From a virus (lineage: Duplodnaviria > Heunggongvirae > Uroviricota > Caudoviricetes): a stretch of DNA of 20,239 bases. The notes under the pieces are model-generated. The model saw only the letters and a list, made by a program, of their open reading frames with translations, had not been told where the DNA came from and searched no databases. Location: positions 1 to 20,239 of IMG/VR virus record IMGVR_UViG_2657244986_000010; one strand, given 5' to 3'. Of the stretch, positions 10,827 to 20,239 are shown piece after piece. The stretch's first letter is position 1; each line of letters starts with the position of its first letter. Made by a program: the position numbers and the translations under genes.

Positions 10827-11519
10827 ATGTTATATGCATTTAAGCTGGGCAGAAAACTGCGCGGCGAGGAACCTTATTGCCCTGAAAAGGGTGGGAAAGG
10901 TGGCAGTTCTGATAAAAGCGCAAAGTATGCCGCAGAAGCTCAGAAGTATGCAGCAGACCTGCAAAATCAGCAGTGGCAGACGATCATGAAAAACCTTGCT
11001 CCGTTCACGCCTCTTGCGGAGCAGTATGTTAACCAGTTGCAGAATCTTTCCAGTTTAGAAGGTCAGGGGCAGGCACTTAATCAGTATTACAACTCTCAGC
11101 AGTATAAAGACCTTGCAGGTCAGGCGCGTTACCAGAGTCTTGCTGCTGCGGAGGCGACGGGTGGACTTGGTTCGACAGCCACAAGCAATCAACTGGCTAC
11201 GATCGCGCCGACACTCGGTCAGTCTTGGTTATCAAACCAGATGAGCAATTACAACAATCTGGCAAACGTTGGGCTTGGTGCGCTGCAAGGTCAGGCAAAC
11301 GCCGGGCAGACGTACGCCAACAACATGAGCAGCATTGCACAGCAAAGCGCAGCACTTGCCGCTGCTAATGCCAATAAACCATCAAGTCTTCAGACTGCAA
11401 TTAGCGGTGGCACGTCTGGTGCGATTGCCGGTGCAGGTCTTGCCAGCCTTTTGGGAACATCAACGCCTTGGGGCGCTGGCATTGGTGCTGGTATCGGATT
11501 GCTTGGCTCGTTGTTTTAA
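10827..11519 (+). CDS. Ejection protein (P22 gp7-like)
   Basis: 230 aa. N-terminus MLYAFKLGRKLRGEEP...EKGGKGGSS closely resembles P22 gp7 as I recall it. Gly/Ala-rich hydrophobic C-terminus. Confidence 0.75.
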   Translation: MLYAFKLGRKLRGEEPYCPEKGGKGGSSDKSAKYAAEAQKYAADLQNQQWQTIMKNLAPFTPLAEQYVNQLQNLSSLEGQGQALNQYYNSQQYKDLAGQARYQSLAAAEATGGLGSTATSNQLATIAPTLGQSWLSNQMSNYNNLANVGLGALQGQANAGQTYANNMSSIAQQSAALAAANANKPSSLQTAISGGTSGAIAGAGLASLLGTSTPWGAGIGAGIGLLGSLF

Positions 11520-11528
11520 GGGGTAATC

Positions 11529-12860
11529 ATGGCTACTTGGCAAGGAACAAACGGCGGATTGTTGGCTGGTATCGGCGGCGTCAACTCAAACGCTCCGAGC
11601 GTAAATGACATCGGCAATACGCTTCAGCTTATCAGGCAGAACAATGATATTGAGCGTTCAGGCGCTAACAATGTTGGGCTGACTGCTTTGCAAGGCCTTT
11701 CAGGTATTGCGGGGGTGTTTCAGCAGGAAAAGCAGGCTCAGCGGCAGAAAGAATTTCAGCAGGCATACGCTAATGCTTATGCGTCTGGTGATCGCGGTGC
11801 TTTGCGTCAGTTGGCTACTCAATATCCAGACCAGATTGAATCCGTTCGTAAAGGCATGGGATTCATTGATGAAGAGCAGCGTAATTCTATCGGCACCTTA
11901 GCGGCTGGCGCACGCCTTGCGTCATCGTCTCCAGAAGCAATGCAATCATGGCTGCAAAACAACGCCGGTGAGTTAGCTCGTGTTGGCGTTAATCCTCATG
12001 ACGTCGCTCAGATGTACCAACAGAACCCGCGGCAGTTCGGCGAATTTGTCGATCACCTGGGGATGAACAGTCTCGGGCCCGAAAAATACTTTGACCTACA
12101 GGATAAAATGCAGGGTCGCCAGGTTACCATGCGCGGTCAGGATCTGGATTCGCAAACCGCCGCTCGGAATCAGGCAATCACAATGCGCGGACAAGATATC
12201 CAGGCGGATTTAGGTCAGCAGCGCATTAATCTGGACGCAGAAACAAACCGCATTAACAACGAAAATAAGCGCCTTGACCGGATGCTATCAGCAGAAACTA
12301 ACGACCTGAAGCGCCAGGAAATACAGAGCCGCATAGCAGCCAACAACCAGCAGTTGCAGCAGAAGCAGCAAGCGCTAAATGATGGCTACAAAGACGGCAT
12401 CAACACCCTCACAACCAGCATGTTCACTCTGAACGATATCGTTAGTTCTCCTTCACTTAAGAGCATTACAGGCTTACGTGGAGTAATCCCCAACGTTCCA
12501 GGCTCACAGGCTGCAGACACTCAGGCACGACTTGATACCTTTAAATCACAAGCATACCTGACAGCGGTTCAGGCCATGCGAGGCATGGGCGCACTTTCTG
12601 ATGCCGAGGGCAAAAAGCTCGACCAGGCTGTTGGTTCGCTGCAGAACTCGCAGAGCGAGGAGTCCTTTCGTCGCAACGCTGGCGTCATCCTGAACACGCT
12701 CAACCAGAAGCGTAATGAGGCGGTTGGTAAGTACGTTCAGCAAAACGGTATCAAGCGAGTGGAAGCGCCTCAGGCTTCTATAGATTACCTGAAGCAGCAC
12801 CCCGAACTGTCAATCGACTTCATTAATCGCTACGGATATCTTCCATCTTTGGGGCAGTAA
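11529..12860 (+). CDS. Ejection protein (P22 gp20-like)
   Basis: 443 aa with N-terminus MATWQG..., in the syntenic position. Gln-rich with a coiled-coil-like middle region. Confidence 0.75.
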   Translation: MATWQGTNGGLLAGIGGVNSNAPSVNDIGNTLQLIRQNNDIERSGANNVGLTALQGLSGIAGVFQQEKQAQRQKEFQQAYANAYASGDRGALRQLATQYPDQIESVRKGMGFIDEEQRNSIGTLAAGARLASSSPEAMQSWLQNNAGELARVGVNPHDVAQMYQQNPRQFGEFVDHLGMNSLGPEKYFDLQDKMQGRQVTMRGQDLDSQTAARNQAITMRGQDIQADLGQQRINLDAETNRINNENKRLDRMLSAETNDLKRQEIQSRIAANNQQLQQKQQALNDGYKDGINTLTTSMFTLNDIVSSPSLKSITGLRGVIPNVPGSQAADTQARLDTFKSQAYLTAVQAMRGMGALSDAEGKKLDQAVGSLQNSQSEESFRRNAGVILNTLNQKRNEAVGKYVQQNGIKRVEAPQASIDYLKQHPELSIDFINRYGYLPSLGQ

Positions 12861-15254
12861 ATGGCTAATTACCGTGATTTGTTAGAGCAGGCTGGCGCAC
12901 GTTACGGTGTGCCAGAAGGGTTGATGACTGCACTGGGTGCCAAGGAGTCTTCTTACAACCCTGCCGCAGTAAGCTCCGCCGGGGCTGTAGGATTGACTCA
13001 GGTCATGCCTGGGACATGGCGTGATATGGGTTATACCGATGAGCAAATGCAAAACCCCGAATATCAGGCTGACGCTGGCGCGCGCTATCTGGCAAAGATG
13101 TACCAGCAGTTTGGTAACTGGCGTGACGCTCTTCAGGCTTATCACGACGGTCCCGGCAACGTTATGAAGGCAAAGCGTGGTGAATATACGCCAGGACCTG
13201 AAGGCCGCGGTTACGTTGATGATCGCTTTGCTCAATGGGCGGGTGACCCGGTGACAGACTCAACAGTCGAACAGCGCGCCACCTCTGCAAAGGTACATCC
13301 TCAGCAAGACCCTAACAACCCGTTTGCACAACTGGAAGCACAGTCATCCGAACAAGTATCGGCATCAGGCGTGCAGTCAGACCCAAATAATCCATTTGCT
13401 CAGATTGAGCAGCAGGCAGCCAGTCAGCAGCCACCTCAACCCGTAAGTTCTGTCGCACCGAAACCTGTTCAGCAGCAAGGCGGAATAATGTCTGACCTTG
13501 GTAATGGACTTGCTGAAACCGGGCGCGGCTTACTACAGGCAGGAATCAACGTAGCGAACATACCTGCTGAACTCACTGATGCTGTAACAAGCGCGGCGGC
13601 TTGGGCTGGAGGTAAACTCGGCATTGGCGATGGTACATATCAACCAGCACCACGAGTAACAACGCAGGGATTAGAGCAGGACTTTGGCCTTCAGCAAGGC
13701 GCGCTGACTCCACAAACGACAGAGGGAAGGGTATTTGCTGAAGCATTGCCTTACCTCACTCCTGCTGGCGTTGAGAGAGCGGCAACACAGGCACCAACAC
13801 TTGCTGGTCGAATTGCTCAGGGTGCAACTCGTCTTCTAGCAGAAAACGCAGTTGGATCACTTGCTGCAAACAGTGCGAAAGATGATGCGGAAGCACTCGC
13901 CACCGATTTAGGCGTTGGTGTGCTGGCTGGCGGTGCTATTAACGCTGCCGGACGTGGATTAGGTGCTGCTTATCGTGGTGTTCGTGGTTCGATAGCACCA
14001 GAAGCTCAACAGGCTATCAGGTTTGCAGAGCGTGAAGGAGTTCCTCTGCACACCACAGACCTGTTACAGCCTACTTCCCGCGTCGGGAAAATGGCGCAGA
14101 CTACAGCAGAAAATATCCCCCTGGCTGGCACAAGCGGAATGAGAGCAACGCAACAGGAAGCGAGAAGCCAGTTGGTGCAGAGATTTGCCGATAAATTCGG
14201 TGAGTATGATCCAGCGGTTGTTATTGACAGCCTTAAAGCGAAAACATCAGGAATTCGTCGTGCCGCCGGTAATCGACTGGAGCAGGTTCAGAATGCTATG
14301 GCTGGAGTAAACATTCAGCCTGCGCGAGCAATTCAGCAGATTGATACAGAAATATCTAATCTGCAGAAGCTTGGTAAGGTCGCCGATAACGAGACTATTT
14401 CAAAACTTCAGTCCTATCGTGATGAGCTTGTTCGCAATGCTGGTCCTGATGGTCCGGTAAATCTGGATTTGAAGCAATTAAGCGATCTGCGCAGCCAGTT
14501 CAGAATGGACGTGAAGGGGGAACGACCAGTGTTGCCAAACCGTTCCGATGCTGCCATTCAGCGCGTTTACAAGGCGATGACAGACGATATCAATGGTGCC
14601 ATTGGTCAGAATCTTGGCAACGATACTCTCCGTAAATATCAGCAGGCCAATGCCGTCTACGCTGACGAAGCGGCGAAACTAAAGAATACCAGGCTGAAGA
14701 ATGTTCTCATGAAAGGCGACCTGACGCCGGAAGTTGTCAACAACATGCTATTCAGCAAGAACAAATCGGAAATTAAGACGCTGTATAACTCAGTTGGTCG
14801 TGTTGGCAGGGCGCAAATGCGCAATGGCATCATTGGAAAGGCGATGGAGAAATCAGGTGGTTCCCCTGACCAGTTCCTTCGGCAGCTTAACATCCTGCAA
14901 AACCAGACTGGCATCACATTTAAGGGGCAGGACGCTGCTTATCTGAAAGGATTAAAAAACTATCTGCAATCCACGCAGCAGGCTGCAAAAGCGGCAGTAA
15001 CAACACCCACAGGGCAGCAAACTATCCCGTTCATTATTGGGTATGGGACGGCAATGAACCCGGCGACAACTGGCGCAGCAGTAAGCTACGGACTTCTTAC
15101 TCGCGCCTATGAGAGCGAGCCATTCAGAAATGCAATGCTCCGAATGGCAAACACCCCACGCGGATCAACAGCGTTTGAGAAAGCCATGCAGCAGGCACAA
15201 AAGGCAATTAACGCTCTGACGCAGGGGGCTAAGTCTGATGCGTTGTCAGAATAG
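12861..15254 (+). CDS. Ejection protein (gp16-like) with N-terminal lytic transglycosylase (SLT) domain
   Basis: 797 aa. Residues ~20-100 carry the three family-1 lytic transglycosylase motifs: catalytic E-S (GAKESSYNP, Glu codon at 12945-12947), GLTQVMP, and AYHDGPGNV. Last gene of the ejection-protein cluster. Confidence 0.8.
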   Translation: MANYRDLLEQAGARYGVPEGLMTALGAKESSYNPAAVSSAGAVGLTQVMPGTWRDMGYTDEQMQNPEYQADAGARYLAKMYQQFGNWRDALQAYHDGPGNVMKAKRGEYTPGPEGRGYVDDRFAQWAGDPVTDSTVEQRATSAKVHPQQDPNNPFAQLEAQSSEQVSASGVQSDPNNPFAQIEQQAASQQPPQPVSSVAPKPVQQQGGIMSDLGNGLAETGRGLLQAGINVANIPAELTDAVTSAAAWAGGKLGIGDGTYQPAPRVTTQGLEQDFGLQQGALTPQTTEGRVFAEALPYLTPAGVERAATQAPTLAGRIAQGATRLLAENAVGSLAANSAKDDAEALATDLGVGVLAGGAINAAGRGLGAAYRGVRGSIAPEAQQAIRFAEREGVPLHTTDLLQPTSRVGKMAQTTAENIPLAGTSGMRATQQEARSQLVQRFADKFGEYDPAVVIDSLKAKTSGIRRAAGNRLEQVQNAMAGVNIQPARAIQQIDTEISNLQKLGKVADNETISKLQSYRDELVRNAGPDGPVNLDLKQLSDLRSQFRMDVKGERPVLPNRSDAAIQRVYKAMTDDINGAIGQNLGNDTLRKYQQANAVYADEAAKLKNTRLKNVLMKGDLTPEVVNNMLFSKNKSEIKTLYNSVGRVGRAQMRNGIIGKAMEKSGGSPDQFLRQLNILQNQTGITFKGQDAAYLKGLKNYLQSTQQAAKAAVTTPTGQQTIPFIIGYGTAMNPATTGAAVSYGLLTRAYESEPFRNAMLRMANTPRGSTAFEKAMQQAQKAINALTQGAKSDALSE
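13308..13409 (+). repeat. Two diverged tandem copies of a ~24-residue DPNNPFAQ-containing motif inside the gp16-like gene
   Basis: QQDPNNPFAQLEAQ... at 13308 and QSDPNNPFAQIEQQ... at 13380, spaced 72 nt (24 codons) apart, in the Gln-rich linker after the SLT domain. Codon usage differs between the copies. Confidence 0.6.
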
Positions 15255-15343
15255 CTTTGCAAACACCAGGAAAGTGCAAAAACCAAATATGTAGAATGTA
15301 ATATTCATCATATCTCTTTGCATAAATCCTCCGTAATGGATGG

Positions 15344-15637
15344 TTAGTTGCTGTCTTTTTTATATAGCTCCTTGAGCGTATCAAAGACAATTTTCTTAAC
15401 CATATCAGATTGTTGTTCTGCCATACGCTCTGCATCGTCAATGTAAACTGATGCAGAGCTTTGTTTATCCAATGATTCTTCAATCGCTGCAATTATCTCT
15501 GAGTTCAGCGACCTGTTATTCATCTTCGCACGCTGCTTAATTTTCGCGTGGAGTTCATGCGGAAGTCTCAAGTGAAACTGCGCCTCGTCGTATTTGCTGT
15601 ACATCCTTGATGCCTCACCAGTTGGGTGGAATGGCAT
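15344..15637 (-). CDS. mnt: Mnt-like ribbon-helix-helix repressor (Arc/MetJ family)
   Basis: RHH segment FHLRLPHELHAKIKQRAKMNNRSLNSEIIAAIEESL and C-terminal DAERMAEQQSDMVKKIVFDTLKELYKK closely resemble P22 Mnt as I recall it. The true start may be the internal ATG at 15604 (GAGG 8 nt upstream), giving 86 aa. Confidence 0.8.
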   Translation of the reverse strand: MPFHPTGEASRMYSKYDEAQFHLRLPHELHAKIKQRAKMNNRSLNSEIIAAIEESLDKQSSASVYIDDAERMAEQQSDMVKKIVFDTLKELYKKDSN

Positions 15638-15725
15638 CGTAACCTACTGGATAAATACTCAATAGTACCATTTCGGTATGCAATCACATCATGGTTGCAT
15701 CATATCATTCGTCTGGAGCAATGAA

Positions 15726-17810
15726 ATGTCAGATATCACCGCAAATGTTGTGGTAAGCATGCCTTCGCAACTCTTCACTATGGCTCGTTCTTTTAAAGCG
15801 GTTGCCAATGGCAAAATTTATATCGGTAAAATTGACACTGACCCGGTAAATCCTGAAAACCAGATTCAGGTTTATGTGGAGAACGAAGACGGCTCTCACG
15901 TTCCTGTTGCACAGCCAATCATCATTAACGCTGCTGGTTACCCGGTATATAACGGACAGATTTCCAAGTTTGTAACCGTGCAAGGCCACTCTATGTCTGT
16001 TTATGATGCGTATGGTGCACAGCAGTTCTATTTTCCGAATGTGCTGAAGTATGACCCTGACCAATTAAGGCAAGAATTAGCTTCTGACAGAGGAGCAACA
16101 TTATCATTAAGTCAGATAGCTACTTCTTACGGTCTTGATTTCTCGTTAGGCGGTGTATGGCGGGAGGGGGTGTTATCTAATGTTGATAACTGGTGGTGGT
16201 ATAATAATAAAATCTACACCGGTGGTAGCGGAAATCTGCCATCTATCCCATCAGCACCGTGGTATCCAATTCGCCCGGGATACAAATTAAACTTAACAGA
16301 CTTTATTACCTCCAAGGGTGTGAGCGATATTCTTGACGTAGTGGACTGGCAATGGGCTTTCGATAGCGCGAAGCTCAATGCTTCTCACACATCAATGCTT
16401 GACATGGACGCACGCGAATACACTATGAATTCCACTGGTTACATAGCGCCACAGGGTGTTGGTCTTCGCGGTCCGAAAGATGCAATGATGAACCCGTCTT
16501 TAGATGGTATAGCTGTTATATATGTCAATAAAGAGCCATCATCAAACGATGTGTTTGTGACAATGCAAGGTGGAAACGCATTTGAAAATTTCGGTATATT
16601 CTTTGCTCAGCAAATCTACACCACACTGGCCTCAGCGTTAGATACTGGGACGATGTTCAAACGCGTACCTGCAACTGGAGCTGGTGATGAAATTATGACA
16701 AAAGCATGCATATTAAAGGGGGTTAGCGCGTGTGGGGTTGCAAAACTTTGGAGTGGAAGCCTTGATGACAATGCGACAGGTGAATACGATGAGATAATTC
16801 GCGTTTCTGCCACGCCAAACAAATTTGGGCCTACATTTCGGTATGGTATTAGCACTGATTTTCTGCGCACAAAAACAGTTCATATTAATGCTAATGTTGT
16901 TAGCGCGTATCGAGCTAGATATGGAGTTGATTTTACGGTAAGAGCGCTAACCAGCGACAATACATCAGCCATAGGATTCCTTATTGAGCGCATGGATGGT
17001 GGTCTATTCGAGGATATCCTGACATATGGTGTTCCATTCTCGGTTGTTTTTGGTGCTGTTGGCGGGTCTGGCGGGGTTAACTCAGGTAGTGCAAACTTCG
17101 TATCATGTGGCTTTGACGCAACCTGTTTTCCTATCTACATTAACGCCCCTACAGGAGCATTTGGTATTTCTTTCTCTAACTGCCAGGCTGTCTTCGATGA
17201 GCAGTATGGTGACACGTCCGGAGCTCTGGTTTATTTGGGCGCAGGAGCTTCCTCACATCAGATAATGCTTAGCAATATCAAGGTGCAGAAGTCAGCAAGT
17301 TTCAATTATCGACCAGTAAGGGCTGTTTCTGGAAGTGCGGATAACAGGGTGACAATTTCAACCAGTGCGTTAACAGCCAGTCAAGACGTTCTTGATGAGG
17401 GAACCAGTAATCGCATAAGCATTATTGGATCAACAAGAAACCTCGGCGGCCTTAATATGATGACTAATACTACGGCAGAATCATCGCTGGTGTCATCAAT
17501 GGGGGAGTTGAATACAGTAGTAAGAAAGCAGTTATCAGTACCAATTCAAGCCGGCTCTTCATTTGTCAATTTGACAGTAACGTATCCATATACTGGTTGG
17601 CTTGCAACTCCTAATGTGATAACAGAGCTTGTCGGTGTGGCAATTCCTGGTCAACCAGATTCAACTCTTTACGACGTAAGAACGTTTTCTCGGACAGAAA
17701 ATGGGTGCGTACTTAGATGCACCTTGAGCTCAGCAGCGACTGGTAACGGTAACCTTATAGTTGACATATATGTTGTCGGTACGGTTCGGGGAACGCTCAA
17801 AGCGGTTTAG
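15726..17810 (+). CDS. Tailspike protein (conserved head-binding domain, divergent receptor-binding domain)
   Basis: Residues 1-113 ([11 protein letters not shown]...[21 protein letters not shown]...NVLKYDPDQ) match the conserved P22/Sf6/HK620 tailspike head-binding domain. GGAG Shine-Dalgarno 8 nt upstream of the ATG at 15726. The track's 15678 start adds 16 unsupported residues. Confidence 0.9.
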
Positions 17811-17830
17811 TATTGTTTATAAGCCAACTC

Positions 17831-17870
17831 GCAACTATCATGCGCATAAGAACAATGGCTTGATAGTTGC
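17831..17870. repeat. 10-bp perfect inverted repeat (GCAACTATCA ... TGATAGTTGC) with 20-bp spacer, between tailspike and acyltransferase
   Basis: Read directly from the sequence at 17831-17840 and 17861-17870. Overlaps a candidate -10 hexamer TATCAT (17836-17841) with TTGTTT 17 bp upstream. Confidence 0.5.
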
Positions 17871-17886
17871 TTGATTAGGGGGAATA

Positions 17887-19002
17887 GTGAGCAAAAACAG
17901 GTTGCATGGATTAGATGCGTGGAGAGGTGTTGCTGCGATAATGGTTGCAATTTACCATTTTAACGTTAATTCGTTTATGCATGAATTAACGATAGTTAAA
18001 AACTCATGGTTATTCGTTGAGTTTTTTTTCGTGCTAAGCGGATTTATCATGATGTATAATTATTCAGATAGAATTAATAATCGTGAGCAGCTACTTTCTT
18101 TTTTATTTAAGCGTTTTTCAAGGATTTGGCCTCTTCATATATTTGTTCTTTTTTTATTTGTGCCTGTAGCTATTGCTGGATATGTAATCGGTAATATTGA
18201 TCCGTCTCGTTTTTCTGTTGCATCATTTATAAGTAATGTATTTCTTATCCAATCGTTAGGTGTGAATGATGGCGTGACATGGAACTCTCCATCGTGGAGT
18301 ATTAGCTCAGAGTTTTTTGTTTACGTTGCGTTTGGCCTTATCACACTAACCTTTACTAAAGGGTGGTGTCGTTTTATTATTCCGTCTTTGATTTGCTTTG
18401 TTATTTTGACTAATTTTTCGAATATGGGTGATGCATACAAGCTGGCCTTCTTTAGGTGTGGTTATTCTTTTTTTATTGGGTGTGTAGTATATTATTTGTA
18501 TAAATCAAAATCATTAAAATCTGGTACATGGTTAGAAATCCTATCGGTGGTTGCTGTTGTATTAACAATGTCATTATTTTTAATCAAAGGTAATGATTTG
18601 ATTGCATATTGCATGCCTTTTTTATTCTGTGCCATTGTTTTCTCGTTTGCTCGCGGGGATGGTGTAATTAGTAAAGCAATGGGAAATAATCTTTTTATAA
18701 AGATGGGTGAGGTTTCTTACTCTATATATATGACGCATGCATTTGTTGCTATTTGTATAAAAAGCTTGTTGCTTTTATTTGGAAAGTTTATTAACCACAA
18801 TTTTTTGGTTAAAATTGGTAACGAAACGCAAGTTAATCTAGGGGGAGTTCTAGCGAATAACTTATTGGATATAGTATTTTTGGTATTGGTCATATCTTTT
18901 TCAATGTTGACATATCGATATGTTGAGTCGCCATGTCAAAGAATACTCAATGCATGGTATAAAAATAAAAAGATGGTTGAGACATCAAATTTGGTTATGT
19001 GA
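17887..19002 (+). CDS. Acyltransferase-3 family integral membrane protein (O-antigen acetyltransferase-like conversion gene)
   Basis: GTG start at 17887 with an AGGGGGA Shine-Dalgarno upstream. N-terminal LDAWRGVAAIMVAIYH and internal WSISSEFFVY motifs typical of acyltransferase_3, with multiple hydrophobic helices. Visibly AT-rich relative to the structural genes. Confidence 0.85.
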   Translation: MSKNRLHGLDAWRGVAAIMVAIYHFNVNSFMHELTIVKNSWLFVEFFFVLSGFIMMYNYSDRINNREQLLSFLFKRFSRIWPLHIFVLFLFVPVAIAGYVIGNIDPSRFSVASFISNVFLIQSLGVNDGVTWNSPSWSISSEFFVYVAFGLITLTFTKGWCRFIIPSLICFVILTNFSNMGDAYKLAFFRCGYSFFIGCVVYYLYKSKSLKSGTWLEILSVVAVVLTMSLFLIKGNDLIAYCMPFLFCAIVFSFARGDGVISKAMGNNLFIKMGEVSYSIYMTHAFVAICIKSLLLLFGKFINHNFLVKIGNETQVNLGGVLANNLLDIVFLVLVISFSMLTYRYVESPCQRILNAWYKNKKMVETSNLVM

Positions 19003-19018
19003 TTGGACTTTCTATACA

Positions 19019-19054
19019 AAGTCTTGCGCCAGATAGCAAGGCTTTGTGTTTTAC
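19019..19054 (+). terminator. Putative intrinsic terminator downstream of the acyltransferase gene
   Basis: AAAGTCTTGC / GCAAGGCTTT 10-bp stem (one G-U wobble) with an 8-nt loop, followed by GTGTTTTA, 17 nt after the acyltransferase stop. Confidence 0.45.
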
Positions 19055-19081
19055 GAATGATGAAGTTCACTCCTTACATAT

Positions 19082-20239
19082 TCAAGCATACTTTTCGTCA
19101 AGCCAATCTGCCCACCACTGCATCATTTCTCTGCGTTTATCGAGATACTGAGCATGGTTGTAAATCCCACGCACAGATCCGCCGTTGGCATGTGCCAGTT
19201 GCACTTCAATAGCATCAGCAGGCCATTCGTGCTCGTTCGTAATCGTGCTGAATTCATGCCTGAATCCGTGACCGCTTTCCAGACCTTCATAGCCGATTTG
19301 TTTGATCACAAGCAGTACAGCGTTCTCGCAAATTGGCTTCTTCTTATCGTTGCGCCCGGCAAAAACAAACTCTGATACTGGTTTGGTGATTGAGCTTAGC
19401 GTAGTGAGAAGTTCAACCACCTGGTCTGACATAGGAACCACATGAATTTTGCGTCCCTTCATCACACTGGCGTCGATGGTGATAATCCTGTTTTCAAAAT
19501 CGACGTTCTTCCATAGCATGGAACGAAGCTCTTTCGTTCTTAGGGCTGTGTAGCGTAAAACTTTGGTCGCAATGAGCGATACGATGCTTCCTGAAAATGT
19601 TGCCAGTGCTTTGTTGAATGCCGGGATCTGGTCTGCAGGAAGAAACGGGAAGTTCTTCTTGCGGTATCCCTTCATGGCGTCAGCAAGGTCAGGTGCCGGG
19701 TTATATTTAGCCCTGCCGGTGACAATAGCGTAACGGAAAACCTCGCCGCATCTTCTGCGTGCTTTGTTGGCTCGCTCCATTGCACCGCGATCTTCAAATC
19801 TGCGGATTACTTCCAGCAGTTGCATCGGCTCAATATCCTGAATCTCAAGACCGCCGATGATGGGTAAAATGTCGTCATCAAACATTTTGGCAAGTTCAGT
19901 TGCATAGCCTACTGACCAGACTTGCTTCTTGTGCTCGTACCATTCCTTGTAAATCGCACTAAATGAATTGTTGTTAGACGAAGCCTTTTTCGCCTTTACC
20001 GGATCGATGCCAACCGAGATGTCTTTCCTCGCAGTCCATGCCTTATCCCTTGCTTCCTGCAAAGTCATAAGCGGATATTTTCCGACGGTCAGGATTTTCT
20101 CCTTACCGTCAATCTTGTAGCGAAGCTGCCATACCTTTTTCCCGGATACAGGAACATAAAGGTACAGGCCATTACCATCGAGAAGGCGGTATGGTTTTTC
20201 TTTCGGCTTTGCTGCTTCAATCTGCTTAACGGTGAGCAT
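19082..20239 (-). CDS. int: Tyrosine recombinase / phage integrase (P4/P22-type with N-terminal arm-binding domain)
   Basis: 385 aa. N-terminal MLTVKQIEAAKP...YRLLDGNGLYLYV...WQLRY arm-type domain. C-terminal catalytic region with R, HGFRH and a Tyr in GIYNHAQY. Start codon is the reverse complement of the last 3 bases of the window. Confidence 0.92.
   Translation of the reverse strand: MLTVKQIEAAKPKEKPYRLLDGNGLYLYVPVSGKKVWQLRYKIDGKEKILTVGKYPLMTLQEARDKAWTARKDISVGIDPVKAKKASSNNNSFSAIYKEWYEHKKQVWSVGYATELAKMFDDDILPIIGGLEIQDIEPMQLLEVIRRFEDRGAMERANKARRRCGEVFRYAIVTGRAKYNPAPDLADAMKGYRKKNFPFLPADQIPAFNKALATFSGSIVSLIATKVLRYTALRTKELRSMLWKNVDFENRIITIDASVMKGRKIHVVPMSDQVVELLTTLSSITKPVSEFVFAGRNDKKKPICENAVLLVIKQIGYEGLESGHGFRHEFSTITNEHEWPADAIEVQLAHANGGSVRGIYNHAQYLDKRREMMQWWADWLDEKYA

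Follow-up and report, generated by a model that had tools for sequence, protein, structure and literature searches.

Gene organization around the tailspike-acyltransferase spacer

The window, i.e., the whole stretch of 20,239 nucleotides of viral DNA analyzed here, matches, with 100% identity, a P22-like prophage that E. coli ST12468 (NZ_CP103694) carries at its argW tRNA gene. The genes considered in this study follow one another in the order Mnt/Arc-family repressor (minus strand), tailspike (plus strand), acyltransferase (plus strand), and integrase IntS (minus strand); the coordinates of the features discussed below are listed in Table 1. The tailspike and acyltransferase genes are separated by a spacer of only 76 bp, in which a hairpin begins 20 nucleotides past the tailspike stop codon. 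The GTG codon at position 17887 was taken as the acyltransferase start because of the preceding GGGGGA, the aligned start in L009 (a metagenomic contig described below), and the beginning of the Pfam match at residue 7. The acyltransferase gene, which is presumed to be an O-antigen conversion gene, has a GC content of 31 to 36%, compared with 43 to 51% for its neighbors. The hairpin downstream of it has a calculated free energy of -25.9 kcal/mol on the plus strand and of -18.1 kcal/mol on the minus strand, the strict terminator scan listing the minus-strand form only; as judged from these predictions, it is likely to be the end of the tailspike/acyltransferase transcription unit.

Table 1. Positions of genes and sequence features in the window
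Feature	Position	Strand	Remarks
Mnt/Arc-family gene	15344-15637	-	
Tailspike gene	15678/15726-17810	+	Stop codon TAG at 17808-17810; last gene of the late operon; Pfam Head_binding, E = 1e-66; RefSeq annotation of the identical prophage
-35-like hexamer TTGTTT	17813-17818	+	In AGTATTGT, 8/8 identical to L009; TTGTGA in L009
Inverted-repeat arms	17831-17840 (left), 17861-17870 (right)		Left GCAACTATCA, right TGATAGTTGC; exact reverse complements; gap of 20 nt
Stem-loop	17831-17870	+	10-bp arms plus 5 inner pairs, giving a 15-bp interrupted stem; 7-nt loop at 17848-17854
-10-like hexamer TATCAT	17836-17841	+	Within left arm; in CGCAACTATCAT, 12/12 identical to L009
IHF core consensus	17853-17865	-	WATCAANNNNTTR (TATCAAGCCATTG), exact match; in loop and right arm
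Direct repeat CTTGAT-N5-CTTGAT	17859-17875	+	11-nt period; overlaps right arm; missing from L009
Shine-Dalgarno GGGGGA and GTG start (17887)	17878-17889	+	GGGGGA and start codon aligned in L009
Acyl_transf_3 membrane acyltransferase gene	17887-19002	+	371 aa; Pfam PF01757, E = 5e-22, from residue 7; RefSeq annotation
Terminator-like hairpin	19014-19055	+	Past the acyltransferase stop, in the interval where this gene and intS converge; stem of 14 bp including two G-U pairs, then UUUA

The C-terminal half of the tailspike (16980-17807) matched only fragments in E. coli remnants when compared with a collection of 5.8 billion proteins, and a protein search of 50,697 phage records yielded no homologue for it. 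Since it has no homologue among the phage records and matches only to E. coli remnants, this part of the protein appears to be a very rare receptor-binding module.

The inverted repeat and its predicted RNA hairpin

The first-pass annotation of this DNA had described a perfect 10-bp inverted repeat with a separation of 20 bp in the spacer, and its coordinates and letters proved to be exact. With a repeat finder, the arms lengthen to 13 nucleotides at 92% complementarity. The repeat is genuine and above chance level: two perfect 10-bp inverted repeats with a gap of 3 to 30 nucleotides are present in the 20 kb of the window, compared with 0.68 ± 1.1 in dinucleotide shuffles, and the number expected in a 76-bp spacer is about 0.003, making a chance occurrence unlikely. 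The other perfect repeat, GCTCTGCATC / GATGCAGAGC with a gap of 13 nucleotides, is located at 15427-15459 inside the Mnt/Arc-family gene.

RNA folding added five inner pairs within the 20-nucleotide gap (G17842-C17859, C17843-G17858, C17845-G17857, A17846-U17856, and U17847-A17855), resulting in a stem with two interruptions, in which G-C accounts for 4 of the 10 outer pairs. The 50-nucleotide hairpin has a free energy of -18.8 kcal/mol versus -7.65 ± 2.2 kcal/mol in dinucleotide shuffles (z = -5.07), and none of 200 shuffles folded as well. It is followed by the tail UUGAUUAGGGGG, which contains no U-run directly 3′ of the stem and four U residues among its first seven nucleotides. The hairpin was not reported by the terminator scan of the window, and an Rfam search of positions 15200 to 20239 (E ≤ 1) gave no match. 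An earlier suggestion that a long-loop hairpin attenuates read-through thus requires revision: the hairpin is real and looks like an RNA-level element of the plus strand, but its loop comprises only seven nucleotides, and a GC-rich stem and a U-run are missing.

Two substitutions bear on the question of whether the repeat acts as RNA or as DNA. The hairpin of L009 contains a U-G pair, its free energy being -19.7 kcal/mol on the plus strand versus -14.8 kcal/mol on the minus strand, and the E. coli copies have a single arm polymorphism, C17870T, by which the closing pair in strain P13-6 becomes G-U instead of G-C. As both substitutions keep plus-strand pairing and break the symmetry of the DNA, the hairpin is read as plus-strand RNA, and the control region of the acyltransferase gene probably contains a hairpin formed by the repeat in RNA.

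The direct repeat that overlaps the right arm is probably a local duplication, to judge from its letters and from the alignment gap in L009. Its 11-bp period is also the architecture of sites for regulators of the OmpR/PhoB family.

A candidate promoter overlapping the left arm

A TATCAT hexamer overlapping the left arm and a TTGTTT hexamer 17 bp upstream of it had been pointed out before, and both are present as described, with a 17-nucleotide spacer between them. The arrangement TTGTTT-17-TATCAT agrees with the consensus at 8 of 12 positions, the threshold of the scan being 9 of 12. When candidates were scored with a rough promoter weight matrix built from consensus frequencies, this site ranked 9th of 202,080, and shuffled windows contained about 16 equally good sites. 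Taken alone, the promoter match is therefore no better than chance. The L009 version, TTGTGA-17-TATCAT, outscores that of the window with the same rough matrix. The best promoter score in the window by this matrix belongs to TTGACG-17-TACATT, which lies inside the tailspike gene (17113-17141).

Despite the chance-level match, other observations speak for the proposed acyltransferase promoter, which we retain as a candidate: the hexamers and their 17-nucleotide spacing are kept in L009 while the intervening spacer has diverged, and the site precedes a low-GC unit with a terminator-like hairpin of its own. A sigma-70-type promoter for the acyltransferase gene is plausible, with modest comparative support. 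Its transcripts would be predicted to start near position 17848, in the loop of the hairpin.

Two further signals in the spacer were considered and dismissed. If TTGATA-17-AATAGT (17860-17888) were the acyltransferase promoter, transcription would start past the GTG codon, although the Pfam match extends from residue 7 on; L009 does not contain this site. A mini-open reading frame at 17840-17863 (MRIRTMA) lacks both a Shine-Dalgarno sequence and conservation.

Comparison with a diverged lineage

Comparative analysis was based on two diverged lineages only, the window and L009, in a MAFFT alignment of 461 columns. In L009, an acyltransferase gene whose product shares 64% protein identity with that of the window is preceded by a decayed tailspike 3′ end and by an insertion sequence element. 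Proceeding along the alignment, the -35 block AGTATTGT is identical at all eight positions, the following spacer at 3 of 13, and the -10 block CGCAACTATCAT at all 12. No other identical run in the 461 columns is as long as the latter, and the total spacing of 17 nucleotides between the -35 and -10 hexamers is unchanged.

A hairpin is predicted in the same place in L009 (CCCGCAACTATCATT / AATGATGGGTGCGGG, 10-nucleotide loop, -19.7 kcal/mol, z = -3.3). It has the core arms in common with the window and, in addition, three outer G-C pairs and two inner A-U pairs, whereas the five inner pairs of the window hairpin are different from those of L009. The L009 stem contains one uncompensated A-G mismatch. 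When the window hairpin was mutated by 30 to 40% outside the left arm in a crude simulation, only about 1% of the products reached the folding stability of the L009 hairpin, which argues for retention of hairpin stability between the lineages as far as such a model can be followed. Between these two sequences, no pair has both of its partners changed, and the right arm aligns ambiguously: MAFFT aligns the L009 right arm to the inner stem of the window and places a gap of 8 to 12 nucleotides in L009 at the window right arm. As to conservation of the repeat itself, which had been named as a point worth checking in related prophages, L009 has a hairpin at the same place. Its core arms are separated by 14 nucleotides, compared with 20 nucleotides in the window; the left arm is unchanged, and the right arm deviates at 2 of its 10 positions.

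The two lineages differ in the predicted influence of the hairpin on translation. For the window, the cost of opening the ribosome-binding site is 3.1 to 4.2 kcal/mol in read-through transcripts versus 4.1 kcal/mol in promoter-derived ones; for L009, the corresponding values are 10.2 to 12.8 kcal/mol versus 4.0 kcal/mol. The L009 hairpin covers three of the five G residues of the Shine-Dalgarno sequence, whereas the stem in the window ends 7 nucleotides further away from it. Masking of the ribosome-binding site by the window hairpin, which would have supplied it with a definite role, was therefore rejected, the opening cost being alike in both transcript forms, and masking is predicted in L009 only. 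As the opening cost in the window does not change between the transcript forms, translational masking is not a conserved function.

Occurrence of the region in E. coli and in phage collections

Among 5,426 complete genomes of E. coli, only 12 contain the region, always with at least 99.5% identity. Several of the carriers, strain UPEC-245U being an example, have three-gene remnants consisting of a 180-residue C-terminal tailspike fragment, the acyltransferase gene, and intS. The segment 17458-20239, which extends from the last approximately 350 bp of the tailspike gene to intS, recurs in remnants with 97 to 99% identity (L002 to L005 and L010), and identity falls upstream of 17458 (78% at the protein level); a recombination boundary inside the tailspike gene is therefore indicated. 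As to location, the remnants adjoin argW, form a tandem with another prophage, or neighbor ybhB-bioA together with IS1. The acyltransferase gene is intact in remnants that have lost the late operon, and this across several chromosomal contexts.

Outside this group, DNA searches of 50,697 phage records in both near and distant modes gave no match, and pattern scans of viral contigs for both arms and for the -35/-10 blocks gave no hits. When genome, viral, and metagenome collections were scanned with the protein as guide, only an identical copy and distant, unrelated contexts were added. Four acyltransferase homologues sampled from the tier below L009 (P0004 and P0006 to P0008, 39 to 42% identity, in L017 to L020) occur in non-phage contexts. 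They were discarded as a comparison for the spacer, for which they are uninformative, none of the four having a tailspike gene upstream. The homologues in L017 and L018 are located inside polysaccharide-biosynthesis clusters, and the named hits of the 39 to 42% tier are from Vibrio; these contexts suggest that the phage acyltransferase gene was captured from a polysaccharide-biosynthesis cluster.

Search for operators and other regulatory sites

An operator at the inverted repeat had also been envisaged. On this reading, a dimeric or tetrameric phage or host protein would bind both 10-bp arms and repress or activate the overlapping promoter. The perfect symmetry of the 10-bp half-sites and their overlap with the -10-like hexamer are what one would expect of such an element, and an exact IHF core consensus as well as a direct repeat with an 11-bp period are found within the same 40 bp. 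The comparison with L009 points the other way. The change of the gap from 20 to 14 nucleotides corresponds to half a helical turn, so that the arms would face different sides of the helix; only the left arm is preserved letter for letter, the right one being changed at 2 of its 10 positions; and the informative substitutions keep RNA pairing via G-U rather than the symmetry of the DNA. Moreover, the arms are 30 bp apart from center to center, which is atypical for a dimer, and the 43-kb prophage contains no further copy of the half-site beyond chance hits with one mismatch. The operators of the prophage repressor are of the 434 type and confined to OL and OR, and the spacer contains no GATC. 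We therefore abandoned the operator proposal, which we regard as very improbable indeed.

Specifically, five operators of the form ACAA-N6-TTGT are present in the prophage, all of them at OL or OR, compared with 0.93 expected, and control of the spacer by the prophage repressor was rejected on this basis. The 434-type operators ACAAGAAAGTTTGT, ACAAGATACATTGT, and others at OL and OR are located in L021 at 11354-11421 and 12560-12595, next to a LexA-family repressor gene. Between positions 17432 and 18198 no GATC occurs, the nearest sites being at 17428 and 18199, and Dam/OxyR phase variation is ruled out by the absence of GATC from the spacer. GATC is strongly underrepresented in the window as a whole, with 33 sites versus 79.7 ± 9 in dinucleotide-preserving shuffles. 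The IHF core consensus has two matches in the window versus 1.07 expected, which is not significant alone. A PmrA/BasR box consists of two XTTAAY hexamers 5 nucleotides apart, the AA bases of which are contacted by the protein (PMC10570014). CTTGAT-N5-CTTGAT fits this architecture, but in both hexamers GA takes the place of the contacted AA, and L009 has no such repeat; the motif was therefore not accepted as a PmrA box.

Comparison with known systems

Morons are described as genes with deviant GC content that possess their own promoter and terminator and are expressed from repressed prophages (PMC3594210). Like the morons of lambdoid phages of the HK97/HK022 type, the acyltransferase gene is a low-GC gene between conserved phage genes, with a promoter-like site upstream and a terminator-like hairpin downstream, and it persists in prophage remnants. 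Unlike in morons, the -10 hexamer of the candidate promoter is embedded in a hairpin arm here, a feature outside the moron definition. In the P22-like prophage BTP1, conversion genes are highly expressed in lysogens (PMC7067206).

The locus resembles the oac locus of Sf6 (tailspike, oac, and int at argW) with respect to phage type, attachment locus, IntS, and the position of an acyltransferase gene beside the tailspike gene; for Sf6 oac, a putative promoter and a putative terminator are annotated. The proteins are not close, however, the best hit of the window acyltransferase in the phage database showing less than 32% identity. Sf6 and six P22-like prophages at argW of E. coli (together L011 to L014 and L022 to L024) carry different acyl- or acetyltransferase genes at the same position, all of which run toward the tailspike gene from the other strand, whereas the acyltransferase gene of the window, unusually, is co-directional with it. 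In the four spacers that were folded (Sf6 and L012 to L014), a short GC-rich hairpin with a T-run (T4 to T7) directly follows the tailspike stop codon and constitutes a bidirectional terminator. The window hairpin shares with intrinsic terminators and intercistronic stabilizer hairpins a stable sense-strand stem-loop past a stop codon and G-U pairs favoring the transcribed strand; unlike intrinsic terminators, it has an AT-rich, interrupted stem without a U-run. Given the co-directional gene, the AT-rich hairpin without a U-run, and the terminator-like hairpin further downstream, the spacer hairpin is not simply the usual terminator of the late operon.

As in gtrABC of P22, a regulatory region lies ahead of an O-antigen modification gene in a P22-like prophage. 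The gtrABC genes are subject to Dam/OxyR phase variation via GATC sites within OxyR half-sites (PMC2909390), unlike the window spacer, which is devoid of GATC.

Proposed function of the spacer and alternative explanations

The explanation that we favor, with somewhat less than even confidence, is a moron-type promoter whose -10 hexamer lies in the 5′ arm of a plus-strand RNA hairpin existing only in late read-through transcripts. According to this proposal, the 76-bp spacer would be the control region of a moron-type lysogenic-conversion acyltransferase gene, and TTGTTT-17 nt-TATCAT would probably drive expression of this gene in the repressed prophage. Promoter-derived transcripts, beginning at about 17848, would be devoid of the 5′ arm; with a start in the loop, the full hairpin would be confined to transcripts arriving from the tailspike gene. 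In these, it would most likely mark and protect the 3′ end of the tailspike message, either as a weak pause or termination signal or as a barrier to exonucleases. Promoter activity, start site, and effect of the hairpin on the RNA are what we infer from the DNA. We adopt the moron reading because the low GC content and the terminator-like hairpin fit the published description of morons and because the gene persists in remnants. Against the proposed function at the tailspike 3′ end stand the AT-rich stem and its tail, which are unlike the canonical terminators after the tailspike genes of the relatives, and the fact that in lambdoid phages polymerase modified by the late-gene antiterminator ignores weak terminators in any case.

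The repeat might alternatively have no function, being a by-product of local duplication or insertion together with chance, with selection acting on the promoter alone or on nothing. In support of this, the 8- to 12-nucleotide gap of L009 coincides exactly with the right arm of the window, and this arm is part of an 11-nucleotide near-tandem repeat (GCTTGATAGTT/GCTTGATTAGG); furthermore, about 0.7 such inverted repeats per 20 kb are expected by chance, and no covariation is seen in the ambiguous alignment of the two lineages. Such a by-product would have to account for hairpins of about -19 kcal/mol in both lineages despite different loops and extensions, a result reached in only about 1% of the mutation simulations, and for the z-score of -5 of the window hairpin; we consider it unlikely. 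An attenuator is unlikely as well. In this case the hairpin would be a leaky intrinsic terminator after the tailspike gene, the hexamers would be incidental, and expression of the acyltransferase gene would depend on what read-through is left or on some promoter lying farther upstream. The hairpin's location 20 nucleotides past the tailspike stop is that of the relatives' terminators, it is stable and kept in L009, and its tail offers four U residues in the first seven nucleotides. The relatives' terminators are, however, GC-rich, short-looped, and followed by T4 to T7, whereas the window hairpin lacks a U-run, has G-C at only 4 of 10 outer pairs, and failed the terminator scan; the better terminator-like hairpin past the acyltransferase gene suggests that the unit ends there, and the conserved -35 and -10 blocks would be left unexplained.

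A further alternative places the promoter upstream, in the 3′ part of the tailspike gene, with the hairpin in the 5′ untranslated leader modulating stability or translation of the mRNA. The AT-rich 3′ half of the tailspike gene does contain several promoter-like sites, for example the one at 17113-17141, and the tailspike gene of prophage BTP1 has multiple internal transcription starts (PMC7067206). In L009, the hairpin covers G residues of the Shine-Dalgarno sequence and raises the opening cost from 4 to 10-13 kcal/mol, but in the window accessibility of the ribosome-binding site is unchanged. The 17113 site lies outside the segment held in common with the remnants at 99% identity, which begins near 17458, and no Rfam family was matched; this alternative is decidedly unlikely. 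Finally, the promoter might be buried in the hairpin by design, such that lysogenic transcripts, starting in the loop, would be unstructured and translatable, while late ones would carry the full stem and be cut, stalled, or, as predicted for L009, silenced. In retroregulation at lambda sib/tI, RNA structure depends on the promoter of origin, and sib exerts its effect via RNase III at the int 3′ end. The similarity would be that, with a start in the loop, the full stem is confined to read-through transcripts, so that the fate of the RNA could follow its origin. Unlike sib, the window element is located between two genes. We regard such a design as highly unlikely, and for the window the predicted accessibility of the ribosome-binding site is alike in both forms; if it were true, the buried promoter would be the 5′-side counterpart of lambda sib retroregulation, and the membrane acyltransferase would be kept off during lytic growth.

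The moron-type promoter with its read-through-specific hairpin therefore remains our preferred, albeit tentative, explanation. The hairpin and promoter of the spacer are a new example of an already known type of element; they are a minor point of local gene control in a prophage, ordinary for phages, and open no new question. If the explanation is correct, a conversion gene standing in line with the late operon would still be expressed independently in lysogens, and this would explain why the module persists in E. coli after decay of the phage.
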